DNA from: a virus
DNA: 64,000 nucleotides
IMG/VR virus record: IMGVR_UViG_3300004369_000003
Span: 38,540 to 102,539 of that record
Direction: 5' to 3' (one strand)
The notes under the pieces are model-generated. The model saw only the letters and a program-made list of their open reading frames with translations, was not told the origin of the DNA and searched no databases. Positions 8,901 to 63,998 of this stretch are shown here, in pieces. The position numbers and the translations under genes are program-made. Positions within the stretch are counted from its first letter, which is position 1, and each line of letters starts with the position of its first letter.

Positions 8901-11900
8901 AATCACTGTTGGAAGCATGGAAGACCGCTTCCGCTATGTCTTCAACAAGGAGTTCCGCGTCAATCAAGTTATTGGTGCTGACACTCTGTACTGCCAACTT
9001 GATGAGCCAGACACGAAAGAAATTGAAAGCATTCGTTTCTTTGGCGCAAACGACATGTTCATCAACTTCACAGAACCTCACGGTTGGAGTGATGGTGGTG
9101 ATGCTTGGTTTGAGGTCCGCGACCTTCCTGGCGCACCTGACCGACTCTTTTCTGGCGAATGCAACATTGTAAACCGCTACAGCACGGGAACTCGTCGTTA
9201 TATTACGACAGACAATCCGCACAGGCTTGCTGCTGGTTATAGGGTTCGCGTTTATGAGTTTGACGATGGTGACGACAACAACACCTCCGAGTTCGTTGGA
9301 GACTGGGTTGTTGCTGGCATCAACAATGCAACTACTTTCTACTACGACGTAGACACTGGAACAAACCTAACTCTAACCACAGAGAACCCAGGGGTTGTGT
9401 CTGGTCGTATGCGTCGCGCTTACTTCCTTGACACTGTTTATGGTGTCGGAATTGCATGGCGTCGCCGTGATGGAAATGTTGTCACGATGTATCTTGATAG
9501 CAACCACGATATGGTTCCTGGCGAGAAGGTTCGTATCACTCGTCTGTCAGGAAGTCAGCCAGAAGAGTTTCAAGGCTTCTTCACAATTACTGGAACTCCT
9601 GACAACCGTCAGATTCAGTATGTAACCGACAACAGTTTCTCTATTGCACAACAAAACATTGACGGTTACGTCTACGCTAGCCACCAGATTCGTGCATATG
9701 ACGAGCCTTTCTACGACTTTGCTATTGCTGGTCGTGAGCTTCTTTCGCACAACCTTGGTCAAATTACCACTCAGTATGAGCACGGATTTGATGAAGGTAT
9801 GCAAGTTGTTCTCAGCAGCCTGACAGGCAACAACACTGGCGTGTTCAACGGAACATGGACAGTAGTTGAGTCTGTAAGTCCGACCCAGTTCACCTTTACA
9901 AGAACGTCTCAAGCGAACGTCACGACCTTTACGGTTACGAACCGAAGCAGGACTTCTTTCCTCTGCGACGTAACCCTAAACACAACTCACAACTTCCGAG
10001 CTGGCGACTCCGTAACTATCTCAAACATGAGTGGTACAAATATTGAGTCGTTCCAAGGAACACATATCATTACCTCCGTACCAGCAGCCAACAGAATTCA
10101 ATTTGTTGACCCGAACAATGATTCTGGAACAATCTCTGCTGCTTCTGTTAGCGGTACCTGTGTTCTTGAAGCTGTTCCATTCGCAGCGTCTACTGGAAAC
10201 ATTCGACTTAACGCATACACATCTGGAACAGACATTGGTGGTGTTGTTGACCTAGTTGAAACCTCAAACGAGGGCTTCAACGGATTTATGAACGTTGATA
10301 CGTCAATTCTTGGTCTTAAGAACCGCGACACCTACTTTATTCAGAAAGTTGATGACAACACAATTCGTCTTTCTGAAGACTCTGCCTTTACAGAAATTGC
10401 AGACATCCAAGGTGTTGGTGTGGGTAACCACTCTATTATTAACAAGTCTGTTGATTACATTCTTGACACCATCACAATTCCTAATCACGGCTTCTCTCTA
10501 GCAGAGTTGGTTGAATACGACACTGGTGGAGGAACCGCGCTAGGTGGTCTAACTACGGCAACTCCGTACTATGTAATTCCAGTTGACGGAAACACTCTGC
10601 AGTTGGCTACTTCTGCAAACAATGCAAATAATGGTGTTGCTATTGACCTTCTAGACAATGTGACACCGACTGGTCGTCATACTCTGAAGTCTCTCATCAG
10701 AACCCCAGATGGAACTTACGCAATTAGCGATGTTCCAAGCGCCACGACGTTTGAGGTAATTGCAAACGGTTCTGTCCCATTCATTGAGAAGTCTTTTGAC
10801 CCTCAATTCACTGTTGACCTTGACCTAAACGTCATTAAGGTTCCATCTCACGGTTTCTTGACTGGAACAAAGGTTACATACGGAGACGGAGGCGGAACTG
10901 CTCTAGGTGGTCTAACAGATGGAACCATTTACTATGCAATTGCCATTAACAAGGACTATTTGAAACTTGCTGTAAGCGCTGAAGCAGCTGCTTCTGGTCA
11001 ACCTCTTACCATCACCACTACTGGTGCAGGAAGCGGTCACACCTTTACATCTTCCCAAATTAACGGTCAGATTACTGGTTCAGGTACGGTTTCAACAGAA
11101 GTTGACTCGGTACTTGTAAATGGTAGCGGTACAACCTTCTCCAAGATTCTCAAGGTTGGCGACTACTTCAGACTCTTCCCCGCTGATGCACACGAGAAGT
11201 ACTACTTTGAGGCTTCAGATGTTGACTCCGCGACTACTGACCAAATTCTTGTGGCAAACCACAACTACACCACGGGCGAGTCAGTTCTATTCAACGCTGG
11301 TTCTGGTGGTCGTCGGGTTGGAATTGCAAGAATTCAGAGCTCTGGAACAACTCGCTACATCTATACCAGTGAAAACCATGGCTACCAAAACGGTGATACG
11401 GTTACCGTCTCTGGTCTAAGTAGTGATTCTGCTTCTGACTTTGAGGGAACATACGTCATCAACTTTGTGTCGGCTCAAGAGTTCCGCTACATAGGAGTTG
11501 AGAGTTTCACTCTTGGTGTAGAGAATCAAGCCTGGGGAGCAACGGCTTTTACCAATGGTCCTGCAGGTGTGGCTCCTGCTCCACTTGTCAACGACAAGTA
11601 CTACTACGTCAGGAGAATTGACGACTCAACTGTTCGCAACATCTCTTCTCGTTATCGCACAAGCAACGTGGTTCGCATTACAACTTCAGCAAGCCACGGC
11701 CTACAGCCAGGAAACGTTGTAACTATTGAAAACATTACTGGCGTAAACCCAGAGGTGTTTAATGGAACGCACACAATTATTGCCGTTCCTTCAGCCACGA
11801 CTTTTGAGTTCAACTCAGTAGGAACAAACATTGGTAGTGCAAGTGCTAGTGGAACCATTACCACAACAAGTAGCAACCTTGTAACTCTTCACCCAACCAA

Positions 11901-23136: not shown

Positions 23137-23668
23137 TCTTAGCTTTTGCGCGAGCCTTCTCTCGTTCACGAATCCTGGCTCGGCGTTCACGTTCCTTCTG
23201 CTTCTTTTCTTCTTTTTGCTGACGCTCAATTTGATAAGCAAGGACCGCATTCGCGCTTGTTCGACTACGCCATGCAAATCCGCAAACTGTACATGTAACA
23301 ATTTTTGCTGTAGTCCACCGACCACCACCAGACATTTCTTGACTACTTGTTTCTAGTTTTGATGGTCGTGCACTGCAGTAAGGACAGTGTGGGAACCTAC
23401 GTCTGCGTGTTTCTTCTCCTTTGTAGGAGACAGATAGAGCGCGTCGTATCTCTACTTCGTCCTTTCCCCCCCAGATTCCCCAAATTTGGCGATGCTCCAG
23501 CGCCCATTGAATACATTGTTTTCTGACGGGGCAGCCATAACAGAGGTTTTTAGCCTCATATCGTTCTTTGGGGTCCTTTGAGAAGAACCAGTCTCTGTTG
23601 TCTCTATGCTCTGGCTTGGAGCATGAAGCATCCACTTGCCATGTCAAGTTGTCTGCTGGTTCCCACAC
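23120..23668 (-). CDS. whiB: WhiB-family Fe-S transcription factor with C-terminal Zn-ribbon extension
   Basis: C...CYGCPVRKQC...WGIWGG WhiB signature, plus CPYC/CTVC and a basic tail. Confidence 0.9.
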   Translation of the reverse strand: MWEPADNLTWQVDASCSKPEHRDNRDWFFSKDPKERYEAKNLCYGCPVRKQCIQWALEHRQIWGIWGGKDEVEIRRALSVSYKGEETRRRRFPHCPYCSARPSKLETSSQEMSGGGRWTTAKIVTCTVCGFAWRSRTSANAVLAYQIERQQKEEKKQKERERRARIREREKARAKAKTKKQT

Positions 23669-24373: not shown

Positions 24374-24671
24374 ACAGATATTCTACCTCTTCAGGGAGAG
24401 CCGTATCTGGAACAAACCGCGATTTTCCTTGCCTTTTAATGAGTTTTCGCTCATTAGGAGTGAGACCTCCCCATACACCGTGAGTCTCGTTTTTTAATCC
24501 CCAAATAGCGCAATCAGTTTTGTATTCGCAAGTAGAGCAAACTTTTTTAGCGTCCCCATACATAGAGTCGTTTGTGCCATTTGATTCTGGGTCGTCTTTG
24601 TCTTGAGCAAAGAAGACGTTAACTCCGACTTCAGTACATGGTGCGTTTTGAAACTCCCAAGGACCTCTCAT
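24333..24671 (-). CDS. whiB: WhiB-family transcription factor
   Basis: APC...VFF...AKKVCSTCEYKTDC...HGVWGGLTPNER. Confidence 0.92.
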   Translation of the reverse strand: MRGPWEFQNAPCTEVGVNVFFAQDKDDPESNGTNDSMYGDAKKVCSTCEYKTDCAIWGLKNETHGVWGGLTPNERKLIKRQGKSRFVPDTALPEEVEYLYERRASLNATADM

Positions 24672-51189: not shown

Positions 51190-54100
51190 TTAGGTAAGGA
51201 GCCTTAGGAGCTTCGCCATCTCACTGGAGATTTCACTTTGGTTGAAGTAATCGCCGCCCGACATAAACCGCTTAAGTTTCTCGGTAGCAACGTCGGCGTC
51301 TTCATCACCAATCTTTTCTTCAACCCTTTTAATCATGTCTTCCATGAGTTTTTTCAGGGCTGGGGGTACATCGGAAAATCTGATTTTTTCTGCCTGCTCG
51401 CCAAAGGCAAATGGCAGGTTGGCAATGACCTTGCCTAGTTCCGCTGAACTGTTTCGGACGTTCTCCAAAGCTTCAGGATTAAGTGCTTTTGCGTCCAATC
51501 GGTCAATAATGCCCACTAAATCCTGGGCTGCCTTGGCTGCATTCTTGTAGTTTCCAGCGTTGTCAAGGTTTTCGGCCTCTTCGACCTTCTCAACTACTCG
51601 GTCCAGACCTGCGGTTCCTAGGTCAGCCTTTAGGCGAGCCAGGACCTTTCTGAACTTTCCAGACGCATCTCGGGGTTGAGTCTGGGGGGTGTATTTACCC
51701 CCATCATCTTTTTTTGCCCGATTCATCCTCTCTACCTTGAGGGCTTCAATCTCCTCTTCGGTGAGGTCCTCAATCTCTTCTGCAAATGTCGCAGAAGCGG
51801 TCAAAGCACGCTCATCAAAAAGTGCTTCTAAATTTGTAGATTGAGAGGCTAATTCTGCTCGGAGACGTAGGTCATTGGCGACATCATCAATTGAGGCCAC
51901 TTTCCAGTTCTCTGGGATTAGTTCTTCCTTGCCAAGAGCACGGGCACGCTTTCGAATGTGGGTCCGAACCTTGGCGCGGTCTTCGGGGTTAGAGCGACCG
52001 TAAGCCGAAATGGCGTTCTTCAGGTCTGACTCATTGCGGATGGGGTATGAACCATCAGGCAGAGCCTGACCTTTCTTTGCCAAAGCCTGACGCTCTTCTT
52101 CGGTGAACTTTTTGAATTCTGTAACTGCGGCTACTGCAAGGGCACGCTCTTGAACTGTTGCCTCTGCGCCATCGGAAATGAACTCACCGAAGTCTTCAGC
52201 AGAAGCGTTAGTCCACTTCTGTGGAATAAGGTCAAGACGACGAAGTGCACGAGCACGACGCATAATGTGCTTGCGAACTTTGCCCTTACTTCCTGGCTTA
52301 GCCCGACCATAAGCACGGACGGCGTTCTTCAAATCTCCAGCGTCCCGAATTGGGAACGAGCCATCATCTAGAGCTTTGCCTTCTTTAGCAAGACGCATAC
52401 GAGTTCGGCGTGAAACGACAGCCATTTCATTCTCTGGATTGTCGTCCAGCATCTGAATCATGTACTCCCAGTCGCCTTCTGCTTCGTCCTCTTTCTTAGC
52501 CTTCTTGACGCGAGCGGCAAGTTCAGCGTGCTTGCTAGCAACAAGAGGATTTTCAAGACGGTCAAGGCGCTCACTGAGTTCCGCAATCGGGTCATGCTTC
52601 AGTTGAGCCAAAACATTGGCACCTGCGGCTACTAGGGCCAGAACCTGACCAGAAGCAACGCGAGCACGAGCAATCGGGAAGCCTGGAACGTTGACTTGGC
52701 ATACTGCAACAAGCTCAAGGTGACCCTTGATTGGACGCCAGTCACCAGAAGGTGCCGATGCACGGGCGGCACGGATTTGCTCTGGGGTGGTACCAGGACG
52801 CAACGCACCAGCAACCCAGATTCCGTAAGCGTCCTCGCCAGCGTGGACATCGGCAAAAGCGGAAGCTGTGTCGTCGTAGTGGCGAACTGCCTCATCGGCA
52901 GAAGCCTCAAGTCCAGCGTGACCGCCAGCCAAGGTCAACTGACCGACAGGAATGTCATCGCCTTCATCTGTGCGAAGTAGTCCAGTGTGGAAGTAGGCGT
53001 ACTTGCTACGGCTACGGGGTGGACGAGTACCAAAAGCCATTCCAATGTGGTCAACGTGCCACGCGGCAATGTGTCCGAAGACTCGACCGTCATCGGTGAT
53101 GGTGAGTGGGGTGGCCTTGCTGAGTTTCGGGTCGTTGAACCACTCAACTGGTGGAGCCATAGGAATCGCGTCAGCAACCATGCCACATGCAACAAGGGCA
53201 GAGGCGTCTAGAGGGTTCACCCCCTCAACGTAGATTCCGTCTGGTACAGCCACATCGCCCTCCTGGGTTTTGTCTTCCTCGTCAATAAGCTGAATAAAGC
53301 ATTCTTGGAACGCAGGTTTCGGGACGATGGTTACAGCCATCACCCGTGCGCTCGTGATATTTATTCTACCTGAACCCATTTTCTTTGAGTCCTCTTCGCC
53401 GTCAGCGAGTTCAGGAATCTCTGGCTCCTCTGCCTCAAACTTGTCCATGTCAGCCGAAACCCCACGAATAAACCCGTGGCGCACGAGGCGCTCTGCTTCC
53501 TTGCCAAATTCACCATCGTCAAACACGCCGTAGGCGTTTCCGATGCCTTGGTCAGTTCGCTCCATGTGGGTAATTTGACCGACAACCACCGAACCGTCGT
53601 GGCCCTGTCCTGTCTTGATTTGCCACAAAAGAGGTAGCGGAAGGTCGCGAATTTCAATAGCACCCTTTTCAAAGATTCGTCCGTCACCAGACTCCATCGC
53701 CTCTGGGATTACCAAAGGAATAATGAACTTGGAACCATGAGAACCTGGCTTGGCACCTTCGCGACCAACCAACCTTGAACGTGCGGATTCTGCGCGAGCA
53801 CGCAAAGTCAACTCGCCAATAACTTTTTCTTCTGACTTAAGAGATTCAATATCCGCTGAACCGCGAATTCCCTTTTTCTTTTTACCAACGTTGTACTTAG
53901 ACCCAGGCCAAACGCCTGTCATTTCCTTGTGGCGAAGAGCGCAGTAGCCCTTTGCTCGTGGTCCCATGTACTTGCGTAGGTAGCGGTTGCAACGAGTCCA
54001 GTCGCCAGGAGTGTTCCAGCGAATCTTGAGACCGCCCTTACCAACAGTCCAGTAGCGACGCAGTTTCTCAGCGTTACCACGGTTGCGGTCAAGACCGCCA

Positions 54101-56256
54101 GCGGCCTGAATGGCGGCAATGATGGCGTTGTTTGTTAGGGCATAGTGGCTTGGGATTCCAGAAGCAGCAACCGAATTGTTGCCATCAATCTGGTCAACAA
54201 CAGAAGCAAGTGTCTCGTTATCAAGCAAAACTACTGGAGGTGGAGTTGGGCTGGCAAGGTCGCGAGCGAACTGGTCATCACGCTCCCACTTTGATTGCTT
54301 GCGAACAAAAGTTGCTGGTGTTCGGGTTTTCTTACCTGCAGGAATGAGGCAAATGAGATTCATCACTGCCTGAGGGTCATCCTCAGCAACAATTGCCATG
54401 TAAATCGGAGGAACATCTGCGGTTTCTGGAGTTAGCTCAACATCCTTCTCGGCAGAAGCCTTAATGCCAAGTTTCTCAAGAGATTCCTTAGCAGTTTGGA
54501 TGTTCTTCGGGCGGTACCATCCAACAGGGCTAGGAGCAAGACGAGAACCGCCACCTGGCTTGGCATTACGGAAAGAGTTACTGTTTCCCTCTTTCTCCCA
54601 CCAGTCTCGAAGGTCTGGTTCCATCTCAAGAGCGTTCGGGGCAAATGCTGGGTTCCAACCCTTTTTGACAGTTCCGTCAGGGTTCAATCCCAAGTTGTAG
54701 TACTTGCCAAGAGCAGTATTTACATCTGGAACTGCCTTGTAGGTTTTTGGCGGAATCGGGTCGCCTTCATATTCAGGTGAGAGCCTCTGCTCAGCAACCC
54801 AAGCGCCCCAGTCATTGACGAGGGTGTTGACGGCTGGTGCTGTCAGCGGAGGAAGGCGACCAGGCAACTGCGCTGTTGGCTGGTCAATCGGTACACGAGG
54901 CTCACCGAGGATGCCCGTGAAGTCAAGATTGTTAGCGGGAAAGTTTGCTTGGGAGACAGGCTCAAAAGTGCTGACTTCCTGCACCGTGTTGCCAGGAATC
55001 GTGACAGTGTTGCCGTTGTCTAGTTCAACTCCGACCTCTTGAGTGTCACCGTTAATTGATGTGATGTTGCCTTGGTAGTTATAGTCGCCACCAATGACGA
55101 CACGCTGGCCTACCTCAGCAAAGCGACCGAGTTTGTCACGAACCTGTTGGGACGCCGCTTGAGAACGCTCTTCTGGTGTGTACTCGCCAGGAGTTTCGTC
55201 CTCAGCAAATTCTGTAATAGAAGCCAGAAGACCACCAAAGTCGTCTTCCCAGTCTTCTGCTTCCTCAACGGTGTCATCACTTAGTTGGTCAAGAAACTGC
55301 CAATCCAATTCTGGAATGGCTTTCTCAAACATCTCTGTCTCGTCAAACTCAATCCTGTGAAGGTGGATTGTCTCCATAGGACTGTTGTCAAGCATTGCTG
55401 AAATCTTTAGTGCAGACTCGCGGTCAACAGGTGTGTGAATTTTCTGGCACTTGTCGTATGGGTCGTCAAGAGTTTTGTCGTAAGTGAGGAAGTCGTGTCT
55501 AATGTTTCCTAGGTCGTCCCAGGACCCATCGTCCCAGACGCAGACAGAACCGTCTTCATCAACCTTATAAAGTCGGTCAATTCCAGAACCATCTAGACGA
55601 ATACGGATGAAGAAATCTGGCTCAATATCAGAAGGACGGAAGGAGTCGTGGTCAACTCTGCTCTCTCGGTTGTAGTCATCAAAACCATGAGAAGCAACGA
55701 TTGCAGCACTGCTCTTCTTTTTATTTTCTCGCTCTACGATTGCAGAGGCCCAGCGTTGGGCAGCGTCTCCTCCCCAAAGAGCCCAGGCGATTCGACCATT
55801 TGACGGGTAGCCGTCTTGTCCTGGCTTGTAGCCCTTGCCTTTTTTGTCTACTTCGTGGCGTGGGAAATACTTCGCGATGTGGCGGACTTTCTTGATTCCA
55901 ATTTGTCCACCATTAGCAAGGGTGCGAGCGGTATTGAGACCAACAGGGGTCCCACCACGCTTTTCTTCTTTACGCCACGCAAGACCGCGCTTAGCTTCAG
56001 CAACAACTGCATCTGGGATTGTGTACATGCGGTCGTTATCCGCAAAAACTCTAATGTCCAAGTCCGTCATAGCGGCATTGGCTAGTTCGTAAGAGATGTC
56101 CTGTGGCTTGTCGCCGTACTGATTCCACTCCTCTGTCGCAAAGAGGTCGTTAAGAAGTCCATAAGAGGACACCATGTTTGTGGTTTCGTCAACGACAGCA
56201 CCGAGGTCGTCGGTTGCGAACAACACAAGATTGTTGCTTCTACCGATGTAGTTCAC
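51190..56256 (-). CDS. Capsid maturation (prohead) protease multidomain fusion, ~1690 aa
   Basis: Likely GTG start at 56256 (GGAG RBS, 2 nt after the upstream stop). Protease-like SGDGRIF...LPLPLLWQ...GHDGSVVVG...GVSADMD...VPKPAF; two DGS(F/Y)PIR...DLKNA repeats (DUF6582-like); IAWALWGGD domain. Confidence 0.8.
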   Translation of the reverse strand: MNYIGRSNNLVLFATDDLGAVVDETTNMVSSYGLLNDLFATEEWNQYGDKPQDISYELANAAMTDLDIRVFADNDRMYTIPDAVVAEAKRGLAWRKEEKRGGTPVGLNTARTLANGGQIGIKKVRHIAKYFPRHEVDKKGKGYKPGQDGYPSNGRIAWALWGGDAAQRWASAIVERENKKKSSAAIVASHGFDDYNRESRVDHDSFRPSDIEPDFFIRIRLDGSGIDRLYKVDEDGSVCVWDDGSWDDLGNIRHDFLTYDKTLDDPYDKCQKIHTPVDRESALKISAMLDNSPMETIHLHRIEFDETEMFEKAIPELDWQFLDQLSDDTVEEAEDWEDDFGGLLASITEFAEDETPGEYTPEERSQAASQQVRDKLGRFAEVGQRVVIGGDYNYQGNITSINGDTQEVGVELDNGNTVTIPGNTVQEVSTFEPVSQANFPANNLDFTGILGEPRVPIDQPTAQLPGRLPPLTAPAVNTLVNDWGAWVAEQRLSPEYEGDPIPPKTYKAVPDVNTALGKYYNLGLNPDGTVKKGWNPAFAPNALEMEPDLRDWWEKEGNSNSFRNAKPGGGSRLAPSPVGWYRPKNIQTAKESLEKLGIKASAEKDVELTPETADVPPIYMAIVAEDDPQAVMNLICLIPAGKKTRTPATFVRKQSKWERDDQFARDLASPTPPPVVLLDNETLASVVDQIDGNNSVAASGIPSHYALTNNAIIAAIQAAGGLDRNRGNAEKLRRYWTVGKGGLKIRWNTPGDWTRCNRYLRKYMGPRAKGYCALRHKEMTGVWPGSKYNVGKKKKGIRGSADIESLKSEEKVIGELTLRARAESARSRLVGREGAKPGSHGSKFIIPLVIPEAMESGDGRIFEKGAIEIRDLPLPLLWQIKTGQGHDGSVVVGQITHMERTDQGIGNAYGVFDDGEFGKEAERLVRHGFIRGVSADMDKFEAEEPEIPELADGEEDSKKMGSGRINITSARVMAVTIVPKPAFQECFIQLIDEEDKTQEGDVAVPDGIYVEGVNPLDASALVACGMVADAIPMAPPVEWFNDPKLSKATPLTITDDGRVFGHIAAWHVDHIGMAFGTRPPRSRSKYAYFHTGLLRTDEGDDIPVGQLTLAGGHAGLEASADEAVRHYDDTASAFADVHAGEDAYGIWVAGALRPGTTPEQIRAARASAPSGDWRPIKGHLELVAVCQVNVPGFPIARARVASGQVLALVAAGANVLAQLKHDPIAELSERLDRLENPLVASKHAELAARVKKAKKEDEAEGDWEYMIQMLDDNPENEMAVVSRRTRMRLAKEGKALDDGSFPIRDAGDLKNAVRAYGRAKPGSKGKVRKHIMRRARALRRLDLIPQKWTNASAEDFGEFISDGAEATVQERALAVAAVTEFKKFTEEERQALAKKGQALPDGSYPIRNESDLKNAISAYGRSNPEDRAKVRTHIRKRARALGKEELIPENWKVASIDDVANDLRLRAELASQSTNLEALFDERALTASATFAEEIEDLTEEEIEALKVERMNRAKKDDGGKYTPQTQPRDASGKFRKVLARLKADLGTAGLDRVVEKVEEAENLDNAGNYKNAAKAAQDLVGIIDRLDAKALNPEALENVRNSSAELGKVIANLPFAFGEQAEKIRFSDVPPALKKLMEDMIKRVEEKIGDEDADVATEKLKRFMSGGDYFNQSEISSEMAKLLRLLT

Positions 56257-56258
56257 GT

Positions 56259-56534
56259 TTACTCCGACTCCTCTGGGAGAGCATATTCCTGCAGGTCGTC
56301 GTCCATTAGACCTTCGCCTGCATCCCACTTCTCAATAACAGGAGTGGACTTAGAAGGGTCAAGTTCAATAACGAGCATGTCGTCATACTCGTCCTCGGTG
56401 TCTTCATAGTCGGGGACCCACTTGCCATTTTCTCTTTTGAAGAGGCCAAGGCCAGAAACTTGGTATGAAAGAACTTTGACCTCGCGAGTCTCCCTGTCTA
56501 GGAGTGCATCAAGGGTTTCCACGTTATCTGCCAC
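56259..56534 (-). CDS. Small acidic hypothetical protein
   Basis: 91 aa, very Asp/Glu-rich, GGAAGG RBS, coupled to neighbours. Confidence 0.75.
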   Translation of the reverse strand: MADNVETLDALLDRETREVKVLSYQVSGLGLFKRENGKWVPDYEDTEDEYDDMLVIELDPSKSTPVIEKWDAGEGLMDDDLQEYALPEESE

Positions 56535-56838
56535 CTTCCTGCACCTCCTTTAGGTATTCCTCGTTGAAATGCTCTACATCGTCCTCTTGGATAGGACGAA
56601 CGATGTACTTCTCTTCCCATGATTCAAATTCAATTGTACGCGCATCCTCATTGATGATGAGGTCATCTTTGGCTACGGGAAGGACCAATTCGTCCAGCAA
56701 AAGACCACTCAGTTCAACGTCTTCTCCGTCAAATTCTTTGTAATAGACATCAAAGACAAGTCGTCGGCTCTTAGGTTCTGTCAGTCTCTCCAGAACTCCT
56801 GGAGTGTCAAAAATGAGTTCATCTTTAACGAATGGCAT
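56524..56838 (-). CDS. Small acidic hypothetical protein
   Basis: 104 aa, Asp/Glu-rich, starts 2 nt after the giant ORF stop. Confidence 0.75.
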   Translation of the reverse strand: MPFVKDELIFDTPGVLERLTEPKSRRLVFDVYYKEFDGEDVELSGLLLDELVLPVAKDDLIINEDARTIEFESWEEKYIVRPIQEDDVEHFNEEYLKEVQEGGR

Positions 56839-56840
56839 CT

Positions 56841-59800
56841 CTACTTCCCTCCCTTGAGAATGTCTACGAGATTGACCCCGTTTACGACTTCGTTACCGCT
56901 CTGAGTCAGTTTTTCAATCAGCAACTTCCTGACACTTGGGTCAAGGTTTACCGATGCAAGGTCTGCCCAAGTCAGGTTTGTCTTGAACATAATCTGAGAA
57001 GCGCTCTTGAGTTTCTCAACGACATCGTGGTCTGTTCCCTGAAGTTGACCGAACTTGTCTCCTCCAGTTGAGTAGTACCCCATTCTCCTCAGAAGTTTGG
57101 TTGCATCAAAGTTCCATGTAGGATGTCCGTAGTTGCTTCCGTTGCTTGCTGAAGAGCCCTTGTAAGTGAAGATGTAATTTCCACCATTGGCTCGGATATC
57201 CTCGCTTGAGGACATTCCACCCATGTTGATTCCGTTGTTCCAACGCTTTGCTGTGGCGTAAAGACCACCGCTCATAAGCATGTCGTAAATGAAATCTGCT
57301 TGTGCCTCTGTTCCAGATGGGAATTTCTTGCCAGTTGTGTTGTGGTAGAAGTACTTAATCCCAATTTTGTCTGAGATTGCTTTAGCAACGCTCTCTGGCA
57401 TAAGGAACTCAATGGTTCCTGTTGCTGTTGGGTTCTGTATAACCTCAACGTCGTCGGCGGTAAAGCCCCACTCGTCTTGAATCTGTTGGAGCTTCTGCTT
57501 GCGAAGTTCGCCCTTGTAGTTCTTCTTGCCATCAGTGTGCTTGCCCAGAAGCCAAATCATCTTGTTCTCAATGAGGCCCTTAATGTCTTCAGGTGTCGCT
57601 GGGCGAGCACTCTGAATTCCAAGAGCCTGTAGAGCCTCTGTGATGTCAGCCTCTGTTGCATCTTCTGGTAGAAGAATTTCTACATCGTTGTGGAAAGCGG
57701 CTGAATAGGTGCTGTCTGAGTAGTGCTTAGTGAAATCAACATTTTCATCGTTGAGGTCTTTGCTTGCTCGATGAAGTCTAAAGGTTCCCTTACCAGCTTG
57801 ACCTTTGTAAGTTGTTCCGTTTTCATACCTGTCAACAGTTCGGTCTTGGCTGTCCTTAGGACCCGTCTTCCACATCTTGCTGATGTTCTTGAGAAGACCG
57901 CCTTCTTTTTCCCACATTGGAATTTCAAGAGCAGAGGTTTTATCAATGCCATCTTTTCCATCAATTGACTGAACAATGTTGTTTCCAGACCATCCAGTCA
58001 GTTTGAAGGTCAAACGAATCTGCTTCTTGTTCCCCTTCGTCACGACTTTCTGGACCTTGATGGACATATCTTCAATTTCGTCAGCATCACTAAGAACAGC
58101 AACACCGTTCGTTGCGACAGTGGCGTTGTCTCCCTTGACATCTGCCAGAGCGGCAGTCAACGGAGGAACGTCATCAATCGCTGAGAAGTTCCACTCAACG
58201 TTTTCTGGAGTAGCCAAGTCAAAGCCAGCACCTTCAACTTCAAACTCGGCCTTCATAGCCTTTTCTGCGGCTTCTAGTTCTGCCTTCTTCTTCTTAGCAA
58301 GAAGTTCTTTCTCGTAAGCAGCCTTCTTTTTCTTGGATTCTGCAAGAGACTTATTCAGGTACGTCGGGTCAACATCAATACCGAGCTCGTTGGCCTGCTC
58401 AATCGTGAGGAAGTTCTCGCGACTCCATACCTTGTCGTTCTTCAGCGTCTGGGTCTTACCAGCAAGAGGACCGTCAAAGTAGCCAACCTGAACTTCGCCC
58501 TTGCTTACGTCCATGTTTGTAATTACACCGTGGCTGGTGAGTTCGGGGTCTGGACCGCCTGGGCTAGCGTTTGAAACAATCATTCCTGGAACCATGTTCT
58601 TGGACTCTGGGTCTTTCAGGAACATGCCACTTAAGAAGTTTTTGTAGTCGCTGTAACTATCTGCTCCGAAGTAGGCAAGGTGGCCTGGGTCGTTCTTTGT
58701 CGCAGCCTTCTTTAGAACCTCTTTGATGTCGGTTGCACCGTCAAGAGATGGACCAGAGTAGAACGGGCTTGATGCCTCTCCAGTAGAAGGAGCTGGCTCG
58801 GGAGTCGGAGTTGTGTCTGCCTCGGGTGCGGAAGGTGCCTCTGGGGTAGGAGTAGGTGTAGGTGTTGGAGTAGGAGCGCTTGGGGTTGGTGCCTCGGAAA
58901 CCTCGGGTGCTGAAACGGGGTCGCCCCACTTCCAGCCACTTGTCTCTGGCGTAACGCTCTTTGCAACGATGGTGTTAATTTCACCATCTTCGTACTTCAC
59001 CTTGAGATAGTCGGTGTAGCCGTATCCCTTTGTCTTGTACTTACGAAGGTGTCCCTTGATTACACCCTTTTGACCAAACTTGGAGTGGGTCGGGTTTACC
59101 ACATTGATGGTGTCACCCTTCTTGAGAATGGAACCATCAGCAGCAACGTAGGACTCGGACTCTGTAGGAATAGCCTTGATAGAAGTCGGCAGTAGAGTCT
59201 TGTCTGTCTCGCCCTTTGACTTGCTCTTGATGTACTTAGGCTTGCTGTTGGCAGAACCAATCTGGTCAGAGATGGTGTTACCCAGAGCCTTCGCAGAGTG
59301 GTGCTTCTTGCTCATCCAGTAAACCTTGGTTGAGCCATCAAAACCGTTAGTTATGCGGTGATAGACCTCAAAACTGTTGGTCTCGTTGCGTCGAACAACA
59401 ACGTCGTAACGGTCGTCGCCGTGCATGACAGAGTGAACAACAATGTGTCCGTTGCTGAGAACGGTGCCGTCGTAATCTTCCTTGACTGCTTTCCAGATAA
59501 GTTCTGGATTAGTCTCGTCTGGGTTGGAAAGTGTCTTCTCAATCTGCTCTGTAGACAGAGGAGTTGATGGGAGTTCTGGGTCTTGAGGAACGAGGTCCTG
59601 AGCAATATCCTCAGCAACCTTCTCTTCTGGAGTATCTAGTTCCTTAGGCTCAGGAGCATCAAGTGACTCAATAGCAGAGTCAATGAGGTCTGGGTTTCCG
59701 CCCTGCTCTTTGAGAGTTCCTAGGAGAGCCTTGAGTTGCTCTTTGTCGGGAGCCTTTCCGAAAACGGACTCAGCGAGGCTAGAGAGGTCATCAATGACCT

Positions 59801-62800
59801 TCTGCTTCTCGGCCTCTGGAACATCGGTTGGCTTCTCTGCTGGCTGTGGGTCAGCGTCTGGCTCTGGGTCAGGAACATCTACCTCAGGAGTCTTTACTGT
59901 CGGTGCTTCTGGTGCCTGCGGTGCCTCAGGAGCGTCTGCTTCTGGTGCATCACTGACTGGAGGAGTGAATCCGTCAGACACGGGCTGGATGTTAGAAATC
60001 GTGAAGTTTTTGGCAACACCATCGGAGTCAACAGCGCGAAGGTTGATGTTTCCATTCTTCGGGTTCTCCCAAATGGATGGGCCACCCTCCTTCGTCTTGA
60101 CAGGTGTAACGATTCGGTCTTTGCCCTTGTAGTTGAATGCAACCTTCTGGTTGTTCTCAATTGCGCTAGCAATCTGCGCTGCGATGTCTCCATCAACGTC
60201 CAGCGGAACGACTCCACTTGGGGAAGAAACGGTCTGAACTTCAACCTGCTCTTCTTCCTTTTCACCGAGGCCAAAGCGCTGGATGATGTCCTCGCGACGC
60301 TTCTTCAGAGCATCCTTCAGGAACTCAGCGGTCTCAGCGTCGTCAGGGAACGCTGCGTCAACTAGTTCATCAATCTTTTCTGGGCTGATTGCCTGAACCT
60401 TCTTGGCAGACTCAGCCAGTTGCTCATCGGTCATGTCGCCAAAGATGTCAGCCGCTTGAGGGTTGACGCTTGGGTCACGCAGAGAATCAATTTGAGTCAC
60501 TTCAGGAGTAAGAGTTGACTTCTTGTCCTTACCCTGAGCGCGGAATAGTAGAGAGCCACCTGGGTCAATGCGGTAGACATTGCCCTCATTGTCTGTGAGC
60601 ATGTTGTCGTACACAAGACCAACGGAATCCCAGTTGTTCAGCCATGCATCAACAATGAAGTCTTCTTGAGCCTTGCTCTTGATGTCTGGGTCATTCTTCT
60701 TGTCTCCAAAGTCTGCATTCGAGTTTGGAACAAGTGGAGATACAAGAACGGTGTTGCCCTTCTTGTCCTTACCAAGGAATACTCGACCAACCTTGGTTCC
60801 AGCCTCCTCATACAAGGCTGAAGCCAAGACTTCGTTCGCTGCGTGTGCATCGGACTTAGGAACCTTGACGTAGTACTGGTCACCAGTCTTTGGGTCAACG
60901 TAGAACGCACCCTCATTTGAGCCAGCCTGACCGCCAATCTTTTTCCATTCAGAAGTGTCAAACACAGCGGAAACTTCGTCGCCTACTACCTCGTCGGAAG
61001 GCGTTGGCTTTTCTGGGCCAGAGGTGTTGTCCTCGGACAGAGCAAGGATTCCGTCAAGAGAGTCGGAGAAGGATGGGTGAAGTTTTTCTTCCTTCTGCAT
61101 CTTGAGAAGTTGGTCTGTTGAGAACCAACCAACCTGAGAGTTCTCGCCGTCAGTTGCGTTGAGGTCGTCAAACTGTCCTGGACCAACCTCAAAGACGTAG
61201 GTGTCGTAAGACCAGTCAGGAGCATCGCTACTGTTGTGGACGAATACTGGGTCAAGAGAGTTGATGTTTCCACCAACCTCTTCTGTGAACTCTTCTTTGG
61301 CTGTAGCTCCAACAGTCTTTGCTGTGGTCTGGTCCTTGTGAGCGCCACCTGGGAATGCCCACTTGCCACCGCCCTGGGATAGACCCTTGGAACGCTTAGC
61401 AAGGAAGTACTCGTAAGTGCCGTCTGAGTTCTTGCGACGGAGTAGTGCGCCTGCAGCGCCGTACTTGCCCCAGAAGCGCTTTCCGTTGACAGAGAAGAAG
61501 TAACCTTCTCCAGTCTCTTGGTTGTCGCCACCACCGAGAGGTGCGAAGAATGGGAGTTGTGGAGGAGTCAGTTCACCGTTGCGTAGTTTCTGAACGTCAG
61601 AAGCAGAGATTCCTTCTGCGTAGTAAACGCCGTCAGTTCCCTGGGCAATGTTGTAGCCCTGCCACTTGCCAGCGTCTGCTTCCTTTTCAGGAGCCTCGTC
61701 AATTGCCTCTACTGGCTCAATGACCTCTGGTGCTTCAGCTTCTGGTGCTTCAGCTTCTGGGAAGTCGTTGCGACGACGAACAACGTATGGCTGGTATTTA
61801 ATCCAACTGCTGGTGTATTCCTTGCCATTGGAGAGAAGCCTGCGGGTGACAAGCATCCGCTTGTCGTCGTCTGGGTCATTTTCAACCGAGACAATCTCGT
61901 GCCATCCGCCAAACTTGGCTTGAATGAAGTCACCTGGCTTCCAGTTCTCAACTGCAACGCGACCAATAAGTTCTGTGTTCTCGTCATCCTCAACCCAGTT
62001 GTTGGAGACGGTGCCACCAAGAACAGACTCGACTCCGAAGTCTCCGTCAGAAACTTCTTTGGCCTTGGACTCTGTTGCGCTGGAGGACTCTTCCTTCTCT
62101 GGGAGGTCTTTGTTGTCTTCAATGAGTTGGTCAAGAGACGGTACGTCTCCGTCAGCCATACCCTTGTTGAATACGTTGACTACAACGAGTTCGCTCTCTG
62201 CCTTCTTCTTGAGAACCTTTGCCTGCTCGTAGGCTTCAATATCTGCCAAGTAATCAGCAGATGCCTTATCTGGGTCAAGTTGCTCAATACCACTGTTCGT
62301 GGTTGCCATCTCGTCAAGGAGTTTGTCAAGCATCTCAGGGAGAACTGCGGCGTCAACAGTTGCGTCATGCCAGTCAGTGCTCTCATCAGCGAGGCCATAG
62401 CGCTTGGCTACGTTGTGAAGTTCGTGGTCTCCCTTGCCACCATTGATGACCTTGCGGGAGAGAGAAAGCGTGTCAATCTCTCCACCAGGTGAGTAGTCAA
62501 GTCCATACTTCTCGGAGATGCGCTTGAGGATTGCGCCGTCAAATGGCATGTTGTGAGCCATGACGATTGGGTTCTCACCCATGAACTCAAGAATCTGTGC
62601 GAATGCGTCTTCCATTGACATCTGGTCAGCGAGGAACGCATCGGAAATTGGGTTGCCGTTAGCATCCTTCAGAATGTCGTCTGGGTTCTTGTCTGTGTAG
62701 AACGAACCGAGAGGCTCCTCTGGGTTCATGTAGAGAACTAGGCTGTCTACAACCTCACCGTTCTCACGCTTGTAAATGGCAACCTGAATTGGGTTCTGAG

Positions 62801-63998
62801 TGTTGAAGCCACCATTGGCGCTTGTCTCAAAGTCAATTGCGTAGACAGTCTCGGCCTGTAGAAGTTCCTTGAACTTCTTCGGGTCGCCTCCTGCTTGGGC
62901 AGCGATTGCCTTGAGTTTTTCACCAGCGAATGCGGGTGCTGTTGGGCGCTGTGGCAGTGACTTGTTGGGGTCAACGCTGTCAAGGTCAACAGGTGGGTCG
63001 TAGCTTGCAGCAGACTCTGCCTTGGCAGCATCAAAGGCAGCCTTCTTCTCGGCGTAGTCTGGGTCGTCCTTGCTTGGACGCTCAAGTGCAGGCTTGTCTC
63101 CAGGCTGAGGAAGTTGTTCTGGCTTCAGTCCCTTAAGGACAGCAATCTTGGTTGAACCCTTCCAAGTCTTGGTCTGAGACTCGTGACCTGGGTAGTAACC
63201 CTGAACAACAGCATTGCCGTCAGCATCAGTGGAAACACTCTCAACGACGAAGTACTCGTACTGGTCCTTGCCCCACTCCTTCTTGAAGGTAAGGTCACCA
63301 GCCTCAACGGCTGTTGCAGGAACGAGTTTGACACCAACAGGATTTTCAACTGTGTGGATTGGTGCTTCGTCTTCGGTGTTCCAATACTCAAGGTCTTCTG
63401 GAGCAGACCACATTTCCTTGGCCTGTGACATTGCCTCGTTGTAGGCGTCCCAATCGGCTTCGTACTTGGCTTTATCGTCTGGGTCCTTTGGATGGAATGG
63501 GCCGTACTCGTACCCTTCCTTTGCCTTAGTTACAGGGCCGTAGTCCTTAGCGAATGGCTTGCTGAGTTCTGGTAGGTCGCCCTTTTGAGGAGGCTCAACG
63601 TTTCGGTATACATCAATACCAGTTTCGTTGTTCCACAGTTTTGTCTTCTGAGAAACGTGACCAGGGTAGTAACCAGTAATCCAGGACTTGCCTGGAACAT
63701 CAGATGGCTCAACAGACTCAATAACAAAGTTGTCGCCAACGGTCACATCACCAGGCTTCAGGTCCTTTGTCTTAGCAGTTAGTCGAGCGGGTCCATCTGG
63801 CTCTCCGACCTTTGCTCCACCAACGCTTGGCGGTTCTTGGCCTGCTCCACTATCTGTGGGTAGTCCAGCCTTTGGTTCAGTGGCACTGGGTCCTTCCGCG
63901 TCCTCCGCAGGTTGTTGCGGGGCTTCGGCAGGCGCTTCTTCTGTGGCGGGGGCTCCTTCAGTTTCTTCTCCTTCTAGGGCTTTTTTGACCTCATCTGG
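56841..63998 (-). CDS. Giant polyvalent protein (DEDDh exonuclease, Nudix, kinase-like, WYL, KOW, ART-like domains), 5' partial
   Basis: The frame of ORF 56841..63746 stays open to the window end (PDEVKKALEGEET...). Motifs IDFETS/HNMPFD/HDATVD; FPGG...EEFTEEVG; YYVK...NEVLA...DAWLNNWD...RIDPGG; AIENNQKVAFNYKGKDRIVTP; FYHNTT...GGLY...YIF. Confidence 0.85.
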   Translation of the reverse strand, partial: PDEVKKALEGEETEGAPATEEAPAEAPQQPAEDAEGPSATEPKAGLPTDSGAGQEPPSVGGAKVGEPDGPARLTAKTKDLKPGDVTVGDNFVIESVEPSDVPGKSWITGYYPGHVSQKTKLWNNETGIDVYRNVEPPQKGDLPELSKPFAKDYGPVTKAKEGYEYGPFHPKDPDDKAKYEADWDAYNEAMSQAKEMWSAPEDLEYWNTEDEAPIHTVENPVGVKLVPATAVEAGDLTFKKEWGKDQYEYFVVESVSTDADGNAVVQGYYPGHESQTKTWKGSTKIAVLKGLKPEQLPQPGDKPALERPSKDDPDYAEKKAAFDAAKAESAASYDPPVDLDSVDPNKSLPQRPTAPAFAGEKLKAIAAQAGGDPKKFKELLQAETVYAIDFETSANGGFNTQNPIQVAIYKRENGEVVDSLVLYMNPEEPLGSFYTDKNPDDILKDANGNPISDAFLADQMSMEDAFAQILEFMGENPIVMAHNMPFDGAILKRISEKYGLDYSPGGEIDTLSLSRKVINGGKGDHELHNVAKRYGLADESTDWHDATVDAAVLPEMLDKLLDEMATTNSGIEQLDPDKASADYLADIEAYEQAKVLKKKAESELVVVNVFNKGMADGDVPSLDQLIEDNKDLPEKEESSSATESKAKEVSDGDFGVESVLGGTVSNNWVEDDENTELIGRVAVENWKPGDFIQAKFGGWHEIVSVENDPDDDKRMLVTRRLLSNGKEYTSSWIKYQPYVVRRRNDFPEAEAPEAEAPEVIEPVEAIDEAPEKEADAGKWQGYNIAQGTDGVYYAEGISASDVQKLRNGELTPPQLPFFAPLGGGDNQETGEGYFFSVNGKRFWGKYGAAGALLRRKNSDGTYEYFLAKRSKGLSQGGGKWAFPGGAHKDQTTAKTVGATAKEEFTEEVGGNINSLDPVFVHNSSDAPDWSYDTYVFEVGPGQFDDLNATDGENSQVGWFSTDQLLKMQKEEKLHPSFSDSLDGILALSEDNTSGPEKPTPSDEVVGDEVSAVFDTSEWKKIGGQAGSNEGAFYVDPKTGDQYYVKVPKSDAHAANEVLASALYEEAGTKVGRVFLGKDKKGNTVLVSPLVPNSNADFGDKKNDPDIKSKAQEDFIVDAWLNNWDSVGLVYDNMLTDNEGNVYRIDPGGSLLFRAQGKDKKSTLTPEVTQIDSLRDPSVNPQAADIFGDMTDEQLAESAKKVQAISPEKIDELVDAAFPDDAETAEFLKDALKKRREDIIQRFGLGEKEEEQVEVQTVSSPSGVVPLDVDGDIAAQIASAIENNQKVAFNYKGKDRIVTPVKTKEGGPSIWENPKNGNINLRAVDSDGVAKNFTISNIQPVSDGFTPPVSDAPEADAPEAPQAPEAPTVKTPEVDVPDPEPDADPQPAEKPTDVPEAEKQKVIDDLSSLAESVFGKAPDKEQLKALLGTLKEQGGNPDLIDSAIESLDAPEPKELDTPEEKVAEDIAQDLVPQDPELPSTPLSTEQIEKTLSNPDETNPELIWKAVKEDYDGTVLSNGHIVVHSVMHGDDRYDVVVRRNETNSFEVYHRITNGFDGSTKVYWMSKKHHSAKALGNTISDQIGSANSKPKYIKSKSKGETDKTLLPTSIKAIPTESESYVAADGSILKKGDTINVVNPTHSKFGQKGVIKGHLRKYKTKGYGYTDYLKVKYEDGEINTIVAKSVTPETSGWKWGDPVSAPEVSEAPTPSAPTPTPTPTPTPEAPSAPEADTTPTPEPAPSTGEASSPFYSGPSLDGATDIKEVLKKAATKNDPGHLAYFGADSYSDYKNFLSGMFLKDPESKNMVPGMIVSNASPGGPDPELTSHGVITNMDVSKGEVQVGYFDGPLAGKTQTLKNDKVWSRENFLTIEQANELGIDVDPTYLNKSLAESKKKKAAYEKELLAKKKKAELEAAEKAMKAEFEVEGAGFDLATPENVEWNFSAIDDVPPLTAALADVKGDNATVATNGVAVLSDADEIEDMSIKVQKVVTKGNKKQIRLTFKLTGWSGNNIVQSIDGKDGIDKTSALEIPMWEKEGGLLKNISKMWKTGPKDSQDRTVDRYENGTTYKGQAGKGTFRLHRASKDLNDENVDFTKHYSDSTYSAAFHNDVEILLPEDATEADITEALQALGIQSARPATPEDIKGLIENKMIWLLGKHTDGKKNYKGELRKQKLQQIQDEWGFTADDVEVIQNPTATGTIEFLMPESVAKAISDKIGIKYFYHNTTGKKFPSGTEAQADFIYDMLMSGGLYATAKRWNNGINMGGMSSSEDIRANGGNYIFTYKGSSASNGSNYGHPTWNFDATKLLRRMGYYSTGGDKFGQLQGTDHDVVEKLKSASQIMFKTNLTWADLASVNLDPSVRKLLIEKLTQSGNEVVNGVNLVDILKGGK

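Follow-up and report, generated by a model that had tools for sequence, protein, structure and literature searches.

A 64,000-nucleotide stretch of viral DNA (the window, positions 38,540 to 102,539 of IMG/VR record IMGVR_UViG_3300004369_000003) carries on its minus strand, from position 63998 down to 56841, a giant open reading frame (ORF) that a preliminary description, made from the sequence alone, had read as a polyvalent effector of the head module. We find that its product joins in one chain a DEDDh exonuclease, a Nudix domain, a kinase domain of the CtkA/PI4KII/HipA-like group, a probable WYL domain, small units, and a 430-amino-acid (aa) C-terminal module, with low-complexity linkers between them. 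This protein fits the polyvalent class of Iyer et al. (PMC5512222), and its gene is tightly coupled to head-morphogenesis genes. The explanation that we favor, held as a whole with fair confidence, is that the region probably encodes the C-terminal three quarters of a polyvalent head-module protein of ~3,100 aa that is packaged in the virion and ejected together with the DNA.

Enzyme domains of the giant protein

The frame remains open, without a stop codon, for 2385 codons, in agreement with the more than 2,380 residues first described, and reaches the end of the window, which is also the final base of the linear 102,539-bp IMG/VR record (estimated completeness, 78%). Because the record stops at this base, the gene is truncated at its N terminus, an effect of assembly and not of biology. 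The closest giant homologue, P0002, is 95% identical across the whole visible part and 3115 aa long; ~730 N-terminal residues are therefore absent from the window copy. The Pro/Glu-rich linkers that had been described between the domains are indeed present, as Pro/Glu/Ala-rich segments at aa 1 to 51, 740 to 782, 1343 to 1389, and 1693 to 1747 (the last also described as Pro/Thr rich). The features of the visible chain, from its upstream end, are as follows.

56841..63998, minus strand: giant ORF, 2385 codons visible, N terminus beyond the contig end; ~3,100 aa in full-length relatives
63549..63821, minus strand: conserved beta-rich unit 1, aa 60 to 150; conserved in 35 loci, no Pfam match
63099..63356, minus strand: conserved beta-rich unit 2, aa 215 to 300; GYYPGH..Q.K.W motif in common with unit 1, no Pfam match
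62343..62840, minus strand: DEDDh (RNase T/DnaQ-like) 3'-5' exonuclease domain, aa 387 to 552 (Pfam, PHROG, alignment)
61719..62036, minus strand: conserved small unit, aa 655 to 760, followed by the Pro/Glu-rich linker at aa 740 to 782 (conservation; no Pfam match)
61086..61457, minus strand: Nudix hydrolase domain, aa 848 to 971 (Pfam, alignment)
60264..60971, minus strand: atypical protein-kinase-like domain of the CtkA/CotH/PI4KII/HipA-like group, aa ~1010 to 1245 (predicted structure, Foldseek, VIA-align)
59979..60185, minus strand: probable WYL-like small beta-barrel domain, aa ~1272 to 1340 (Pfam scan of orthologues; below the cut-off in the window copy)
59832..59972, minus strand: Pro/Glu/Ala-rich linker, aa 1343 to 1389 (composition)
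58299..59531, minus strand: three conserved units, aa 1490 to 1625, 1615 to 1725, and 1750 to 1900, with the Pro/Thr-rich linker at aa 1693 to 1747 (conservation)
57393..58136, minus strand: front part of the C-terminal module, aa 1955 to 2202; alpha+beta sub-domain and helical region
56844..57392, minus strand: predicted ADP-ribosyltransferase (ART)-fold domain closest to DarT and Tpt1, aa 2203 to 2385 (predicted structure, Foldseek, VIA-align, alignment)

The exonuclease domain matches the Pfam family RNase_T (PF00929; E = 1.8e-12, 48.5 bits against a cut-off of 24) and phrog_192 (E = 1.9e-21), and its catalytic pentad (Asp389, Glu391, Asp487, His544, and Asp549) does not vary among 24 aligned giant homologues. 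The Nudix domain reaches 33.3 bits against PF00293 (cut-off, 21.1) when the segment is scanned alone; a whole-protein scan misses the match. Its core reads K-E-E-F-T-E-E-V-G-G, the canonical Nudix box being GX5EX7REUXEEXGU, and the core glutamates Glu903, Glu906, and Glu907 are invariant among the same 24 homologues. Both domains lie where the preliminary description had placed them (~62300 to 62850 and ~61060 to 61480), and both assignments stand.

The kinase domain is recognized by its fold. Searched against Pfam, the window domain matches no family, with no hit to PF00454 (PI3_PI4_kinase) at E ≤ 1, and phmmer against PDB sequences returns chance-level matches only. An AlphaFold2 (AF2) model computed from a 27-sequence alignment has a predicted local distance difference test score (pLDDT) of 92 and a predicted template modeling score of 0.90, and shows a bilobal kinase fold with an ATP-binding Lys-Glu pair, a catalytic-loop Asp/Asn, and a metal-binding Asp. 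Foldseek ranks Helicobacter pylori CtkA first, followed by PRPK, PI3K, PI4K, and LepB, and VIA-align gives Z scores of 16.2 for CtkA (over 212 aa), 14.3 for CotH, 13.9 for PI4KIIalpha, 13.4 for MavQ, and 11.7 for HipA. The motifs comprise a G-rich loop (Gly1026 and Gly1030), Lys1045, Glu1056, Asn1122, Asp1124, Asp1131-Asn1132, and Asp1145-x-Gly-Gly. Among 27 kinase domains the G-rich loop, Lys1045, Glu1056, Asp1124, Asp1131-Asn1132, and Asp1145-x-Gly-Gly are invariant, and the catalytic K/E/D/N/D residues are likewise invariant in the 24 giant homologues. Because the AF2 model, the Foldseek and VIA-align matches, and the invariant residues agree, the earlier label of a PI3/4K- or HipA-like kinase (~60280 to 60950) holds at the level of the fold. 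PF00454 matches in three other giant homologues (P0068, P0099, and P0105) were considered as support for the kinase and rejected, since they fall in a different, C-terminal domain; in P0068 and P0099 this domain has no BLAST match to the window kinase.

The phage domain resembles CtkA (JHP940) in its fold (Z = 16.2), in the ATP-binding Lys/Glu, and in the catalytic and Mg-binding Asp/Asn, but it is only 19% identical to CtkA and almost always forms part of a giant phage protein, with seven stand-alone homologues of near length found among 5.8 billion proteins. It is also distinct from the polyvalent-protein kinases reported in PMC5512222, which have no C-terminal sub-domain and come mainly from Verrucomicrobia and Bacteroidetes, whereas the window kinase is CtkA-like, has a helical C-lobe, and is borne by an actinophage.

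The segment following the kinase is probably a WYL domain. WYL (PF13280) is the top family in 6 of 13 orthologous segments, with a best E value of 2e-4; the window copy reaches 13.3 bits where Pfam requires 21.8, so the WYL domain first proposed at ~59985 to 60180 is supported by its orthologues and falls short of the Pfam cut-off in the window itself. A Pfam scan of 33 segments of the six small units gave no matches, and their earlier label as KOW/SH3-like gains no Pfam support.

A C-terminal module with a predicted DarT/Tpt1-like fold

A search of 1.84 billion cluster representatives with the C-terminal 431 residues returned 266 clusters at E ≤ 0.001, and the matching segment lies nearly always at the extreme end of proteins of 2,000 to 7,000 aa. 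The AF2 model of the module has a pLDDT of 88. In its front part, the alpha+beta sub-domain gives weak matches to TBP/START-like folds (Z of 4 to 5), and the helical region contains an invariant Glu2144-Asn2145 and Arg2166. The last 180 residues are predicted to adopt an ART fold closest to those of DarT and Tpt1, as the top matches agree across two aligners. Foldseek reports probabilities of 0.99, 0.96, and 0.92 for Escherichia coli DarT1 and Thermus DarT, and VIA-align gives Z scores of 7.7 for DarT1 (148 aa, root mean square deviation of 3.1), 7.3 for Thermus DarT, 6.9 for Mycobacterium tuberculosis DarT, and 6.8 for yeast Tpt1, with classical toxin ARTs at just 3.3 to 3.7. The C-terminal ART-like domain suggested in the preliminary description is thus confirmed at the level of a predicted fold.

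Comparisons at the sequence level gave no corresponding match. Pfam searches with 34 diverse members of the module matched no family, including DarT (DUF4433). Chance matches only were returned by phmmer searches of the module against PDB sequences and by searches of the same sequences with profiles A3 (the C-terminal profile) and A6, A3 matching no DarT chain. ART-PolyVal (PF18760) was not matched in Pfam either, and hhalign of A3 against P0098, a protein that bears PF18760, gave a probability of 0.2%. A fold search of BFVD with the C-terminal model found uncharacterised viral proteins only, and a cluster look-up yielded no informative names.

The module has a set of conserved residues. Among 212 homologues, conservation is highest at Arg2252 and Asp2314 (210 each), followed by Asp2267 (209), Ser2263 (208), His2219 (200), Lys2339 (190), and Tyr2275 (185); taken together, the His, Arg, Ser-Ser (Ser2263-Ser2264), Asp, Tyr, Asp, and Lys residues are kept in 183 to 210 of the 212. 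Position 2335 is Glu in 199 and Gln in 10. In the model, His2219 closes beta-1, Tyr2275 starts beta-3, and a later core strand follows residue 2335. The active-site residues of DarT are His13, Arg51, Tyr71, and Glu160 (PMC9967889), and from order and secondary structure we infer that His2219, Arg2252, Tyr2275, and position 2335 parallel them in order and spacing.

In a tree of the module, six Gln-bearing proteins form one clade with support of 100/100 and deep internal branches, and one more Gln-bearing protein lies outside it. The clade retains all other conserved ART residues. Because it is deep and well supported and the other residues are kept, Gln at position 2335 is an old and tolerated substitution and not a sequencing error or recent decay. 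The chemistry of the ART in the clade of this phage may be weakened or altered, since the predicted catalytic Glu is replaced.

Compared with DarT (PDB 8baq, 7omv, and 7yk3), the phage domain has its best fold match by two aligners and presents conserved His, Arg, Tyr, and Glu positions in the same order with similar spacing. It differs in ending a giant protein after a conserved 250-aa extension, whereas DarT is a 200-aa toxin paired with a macrodomain antitoxin, in the lack of sequence or profile similarity, and in the Gln that replaces Glu in the window phage. Searches of this phage and of two complete relatives revealed no Macro or NADAR "eraser" gene. It is possible, though in our judgment unlikely, that the ~430-aa module represents a new, uncurated family of head-delivered, nucleic-acid-targeting DarT-like ARTs, which on injection would attach ADP-ribose to the DNA or RNA of the host and so stall the cell, or would cap the incoming phage DNA at its ends, the Gln clade having a changed reaction or retaining NAD+ or ADP-ribose binding.

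Head-gene neighborhood and domain shuffling in relatives

Two small genes separate the giant gene from the head and tail genes downstream.

56524..56838, minus strand: conserved acidic ORF of 104 aa, starting 2 nt past the stop codon of the giant gene
56259..56534, minus strand: conserved acidic ORF of 91 aa, overlapping the 104-aa ORF

These acidic ORFs (56259 to 56838) are very acidic, are translationally coupled to the giant gene, and adjoin it in most related contigs; neither has a family match, and they may act in immunity, as chaperones, or as scaffolds. Complex prediction for the C-terminal module with the 104-aa protein gave scores of 0.00, 0.50, and 0.00, which we count neither for nor against binding. 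The genes that follow on the same strand encode, in order, a 1712-aa protein, the major head protein, an unassigned product, the major tail protein, a head-tail adaptor, and the tape measure. The 1712-aa protein (51190 to 56328, minus strand) matches both phrog_859, a portal protein family (E = 8e-93), and phrog_18402, a head maturation protease family (E = 1e-56); in Pfam there is a faint Peptidase_S78 match only, in the L019 orthologue. We regard this protein as a giant protease fusion, because the true portal (phrog_776) is a separate upstream gene in relatives. The order of genes is therefore as the preliminary description had it, with the protease and capsid genes downstream, except that the two small ORFs intervene.

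An alignment query gathered 41 related viral contigs; a query with the single protein had returned none. In one of these loci, L019, a portal gene (phrog_776, E = 5e-108) is followed by genes for a 445-aa DUF5824 protein, a giant protein of 3147 aa, two small ORFs, the protease fusion, and the capsid protein. The 445-aa protein (L019 6417 to 7754, plus strand; DUF5824 match at E = 3.6e-8) occupies the slot usual for MuF-like head proteins. Actinomycetia phage DSL-LC01, a metagenome-assembled genome in GenBank, has the same layout as L019, its giant protein being a 3289-aa "hypothetical protein." The giant gene lies between portal and protease/capsid genes in more than 40 contigs. The window record has no portal gene because the portal lies past the contig end. 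Of the portal/MuF expected upstream, then, the portal is found one gene upstream in relatives, including DSL-LC01, and MuF was found neither in the window record nor in five relative records. From this gene context we infer that the giant protein is packaged in the virion and injected.

The 104 giant homologues returned by a word-index search show how the domains are combined. In a presence/absence matrix the kinase occurs in 90 and the C-terminal module in 78, and the exonuclease, Nudix, and WYL domains are variably present, indicating free shuffling. Giant homologues add ArdC-N, MPTase-PolyVal, UvrD helicase, ADPrib_exo_Tox, and ART-PolyVal domains. One homologue, P0093, combines MuF, a 2H phosphoesterase, the same kinase family, and an exotoxin-type ART in a single chain. 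In Gordonia phage Forza the kinase family is found in gp78, whose gene is the next after that for the portal, and an ART follows two genes later; in Pseudomonas phage Dolphis the kinase domain lies within a 1222-aa "ADP-ribosyltransferase." P0068, P0099, and P0105 end in another kinase-like domain, at or near the PI3_PI4_kinase cut-off, in place of the ART module; the C-terminal position therefore seems to be a swappable effector slot.

Polyvalent proteins were defined as phage and conjugative-element polypeptides that contain from 2 to 15 domains of disparate activity (Iyer, Burroughs, Anand, de Souza, and Aravind, 2017; PMC5512222). The giant protein shares their hallmarks: disparate activities in one ORF (exonuclease, Nudix, kinase fold, and ART fold), a phage gene beside packaging and late genes, and homologues whose domains are shuffled with others typical of the class. 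It is likewise a giant single chain of unrelated chemistries. It departs from the published examples in that this lineage has no detectable MuF or portal fusion and its C-terminal ART is not ART-PolyVal; NUDIX and RNase T are each mentioned just once in PMC5512222. Virion-packaged phage ART and Nudix proteins have been reviewed (PMC9503650).

The polyvalent reading first proposed is therefore well founded, given the disparate enzymes, the head-gene block, and the domain shuffling. The accompanying suggestion of an undescribed system is too strong, because the class is known and dozens of metagenomic phage contigs, as well as DSL-LC01, share the same architecture. What is new here is an actinophage lineage without a recognizable MuF, a CtkA-like kinase unlike the kinases described for polyvalent proteins, and a conserved C-terminal module, DarT-like by its modeled fold, that lies outside Pfam and has a natural Glu/Gln dimorphism. 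Two enzyme-domain families, the CtkA-like kinase and the DarT-like ART module, are named in no curated library.

The record belongs to an uncultured siphovirus-type actinophage, as judged from two whiB genes, a tail module with a tape measure, and its nearest GenBank relatives, which are Actinomycetia phage DSL-LC01 and Gordonia phages. The two WhiB-family genes support an actinobacterial host, and the lineage, abundant in lake metagenomes, probably has actinobacterial hosts.

~23441-23641 and 24444-24650 (record positions 61980-62180 and 62983-63189), minus strand: two WhiB-family genes, both above the Pfam cut-off

Elsewhere in the window, a second giant ORF (5923 to 14553, plus strand, 2876 aa) lies within a block of large plus-strand genes. 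Among the related loci, L020 and L027 are both on IMGVR_UViG_3300047564_003843 (160,704 bp), where two different versions of the giant gene lie toward opposite ends, L020 being 51% and L027 55% identical to the query; L027 has the same coordinates as L006, and L020 the same as L011. Two related phages may have been joined in this record, by chimeric or concatenated assembly.

Proposed delivery with the DNA and other explanations

If the giant protein is a packaged polyvalent protein, it would be synthesized late, at the same time as the head proteins, and enter the procapsid, and the neighboring prohead protease might cleave it at its linkers. Once ejected with the DNA, it would set its enzymes to work within the first minutes of the infection: the kinase and ART could modify host proteins or nucleic acids, the Nudix domain and exonuclease could break down signals derived from nucleotides or NAD as well as RNA ends or ADP-ribose products, and the WYL domain might sense nucleic acid or a small ligand. 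Precedents for packaging cited in PMC5512222 are T4 Alt, the N4 virion RNA polymerase (vRNAP), and P1 Dar, and phi24B gp47, a polyvalent protein of 2811 aa, was detected in virions by proteomics (bioRxiv 10.64898/2026.04.10.717836). T4 Alt, the N4 enzyme, and phi24B gp47 are large proteins or enzymes that are taken into the head and pass to the cell along with the DNA; the giant protein, for which such delivery is a prediction, is homologous to none of them.

Several observations weigh against this explanation. Searches of the window, of the first 430 residues of full-length relatives, and of two complete relative genomes turned up neither MuF nor another domain known to target the capsid. Phage_Mu_F (PF04233) is absent from the window record and from five relative records (two of them complete), and the N-terminal domain of the full-length relatives has no Pfam match, no PHROG match, and no usable Atlas match; hhalign of this domain against the MuF-bearing P0093 gave no match, although a remote relationship may exist. 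The relatives in this family are all metagenomic. The ART match is at the level of the fold only, its Z scores of 7 to 8 being middling on the aligner's own scale; no sequence profile links the module to a known ART (Pfam, PDB sequences, or ART-PolyVal), and the correspondence to DarT residues is not a residue-level superposition. Finally, the predicted catalytic Glu of the ART is Gln2335 in the window protein, and the Nudix box departs from the canonical form over its first half, with a longer Gly-to-Glu spacing and an Arg that is out of register. The catalytic residues on which the preliminary description depends are invariant in the exonuclease, the kinase, and the Nudix core, with one exception in the chain, the predicted catalytic Glu of the ART.

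The absence of MuF, of a portal fusion, and of any known targeting domain would also suit an enzyme that is never packaged. The giant protein could be a late, cytoplasmic multi-enzyme of the producing cell, serving, for example, in degradation of host nucleic acids or nucleotide signals, metabolic remodeling, or superinfection exclusion, with its location among head genes explained by co-expression only. The exonuclease and Nudix domains fit nucleotide scavenging as well, and the only JGI pipeline names for relatives, [quoted passage not shown] are in keeping with this account. We nonetheless consider this explanation unlikely: genes for virion components typically occupy the position between portal and protease/capsid genes that is conserved across the related contigs, P0093 has the same kinase family in a fusion with MuF, and the antirestriction modules of relatives (ArdC and MPTase-PolyVal) are useful only at DNA entry.

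A mainly structural role is quite improbable. On this account the giant protein would be an internal head or ejection protein, forming an inner body or a conduit-forming ejectosome, in which size and linkers serve mechanically and the enzymes are accessory or partly inactive. Catalytic residues of the exonuclease, kinase, and Nudix core that are invariant across homologues of 45 to 95% identity argue against such a role, despite the long flexible linkers, the many small beta-rich units, and the Gln at the ART catalytic position. That Gln is itself found in a clade that keeps the other conserved residues over deep divergence. Phi24B gp47 has been proposed to be an ejection or conduit protein, but a trans-envelope conduit is less obviously needed by a siphovirus of Gram-positive type.

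Very improbable is a "Trojan horse" toxin, its ART and CtkA/PI4K-like kinase aimed at eukaryotes that graze on infected cells, an idea put forward for VIP2-type ARTs of freshwater phages (for ARTs of freshwater actinophages, bioRxiv 10.1101/670067): the nearest structures of the kinase do include the eukaryote-acting effectors H. pylori CtkA and Legionella MavQ and LepB, but the ART fold is closest to DarT and Tpt1, which have nucleic-acid targets, and not to VIP2, no translocation or receptor-binding (B) component is present, and the exonuclease, Nudix, and WYL partners together with the antirestriction domains of relatives point to a bacterial target.

Packaging in the head and ejection with the DNA thus remains the explanation that we prefer for the giant protein. 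Among phage proteins, those of the polyvalent class are predicted to enter the host first, and almost none of them have been characterized. The CtkA-like kinase and the DarT-like ART module, for which no curated model exists, are conserved across hundreds of giant phage proteins. Even if the domains prove ordinary, genes now labeled "hypothetical" or "DNA polymerase III epsilon-like" would gain a better annotation. If the ART module does modify nucleic acids on entry, DarT, a bacterial anti-phage weapon, would have become an offensive tool of phages, and the natural Glu/Gln variants would offer a ready mechanistic comparison.

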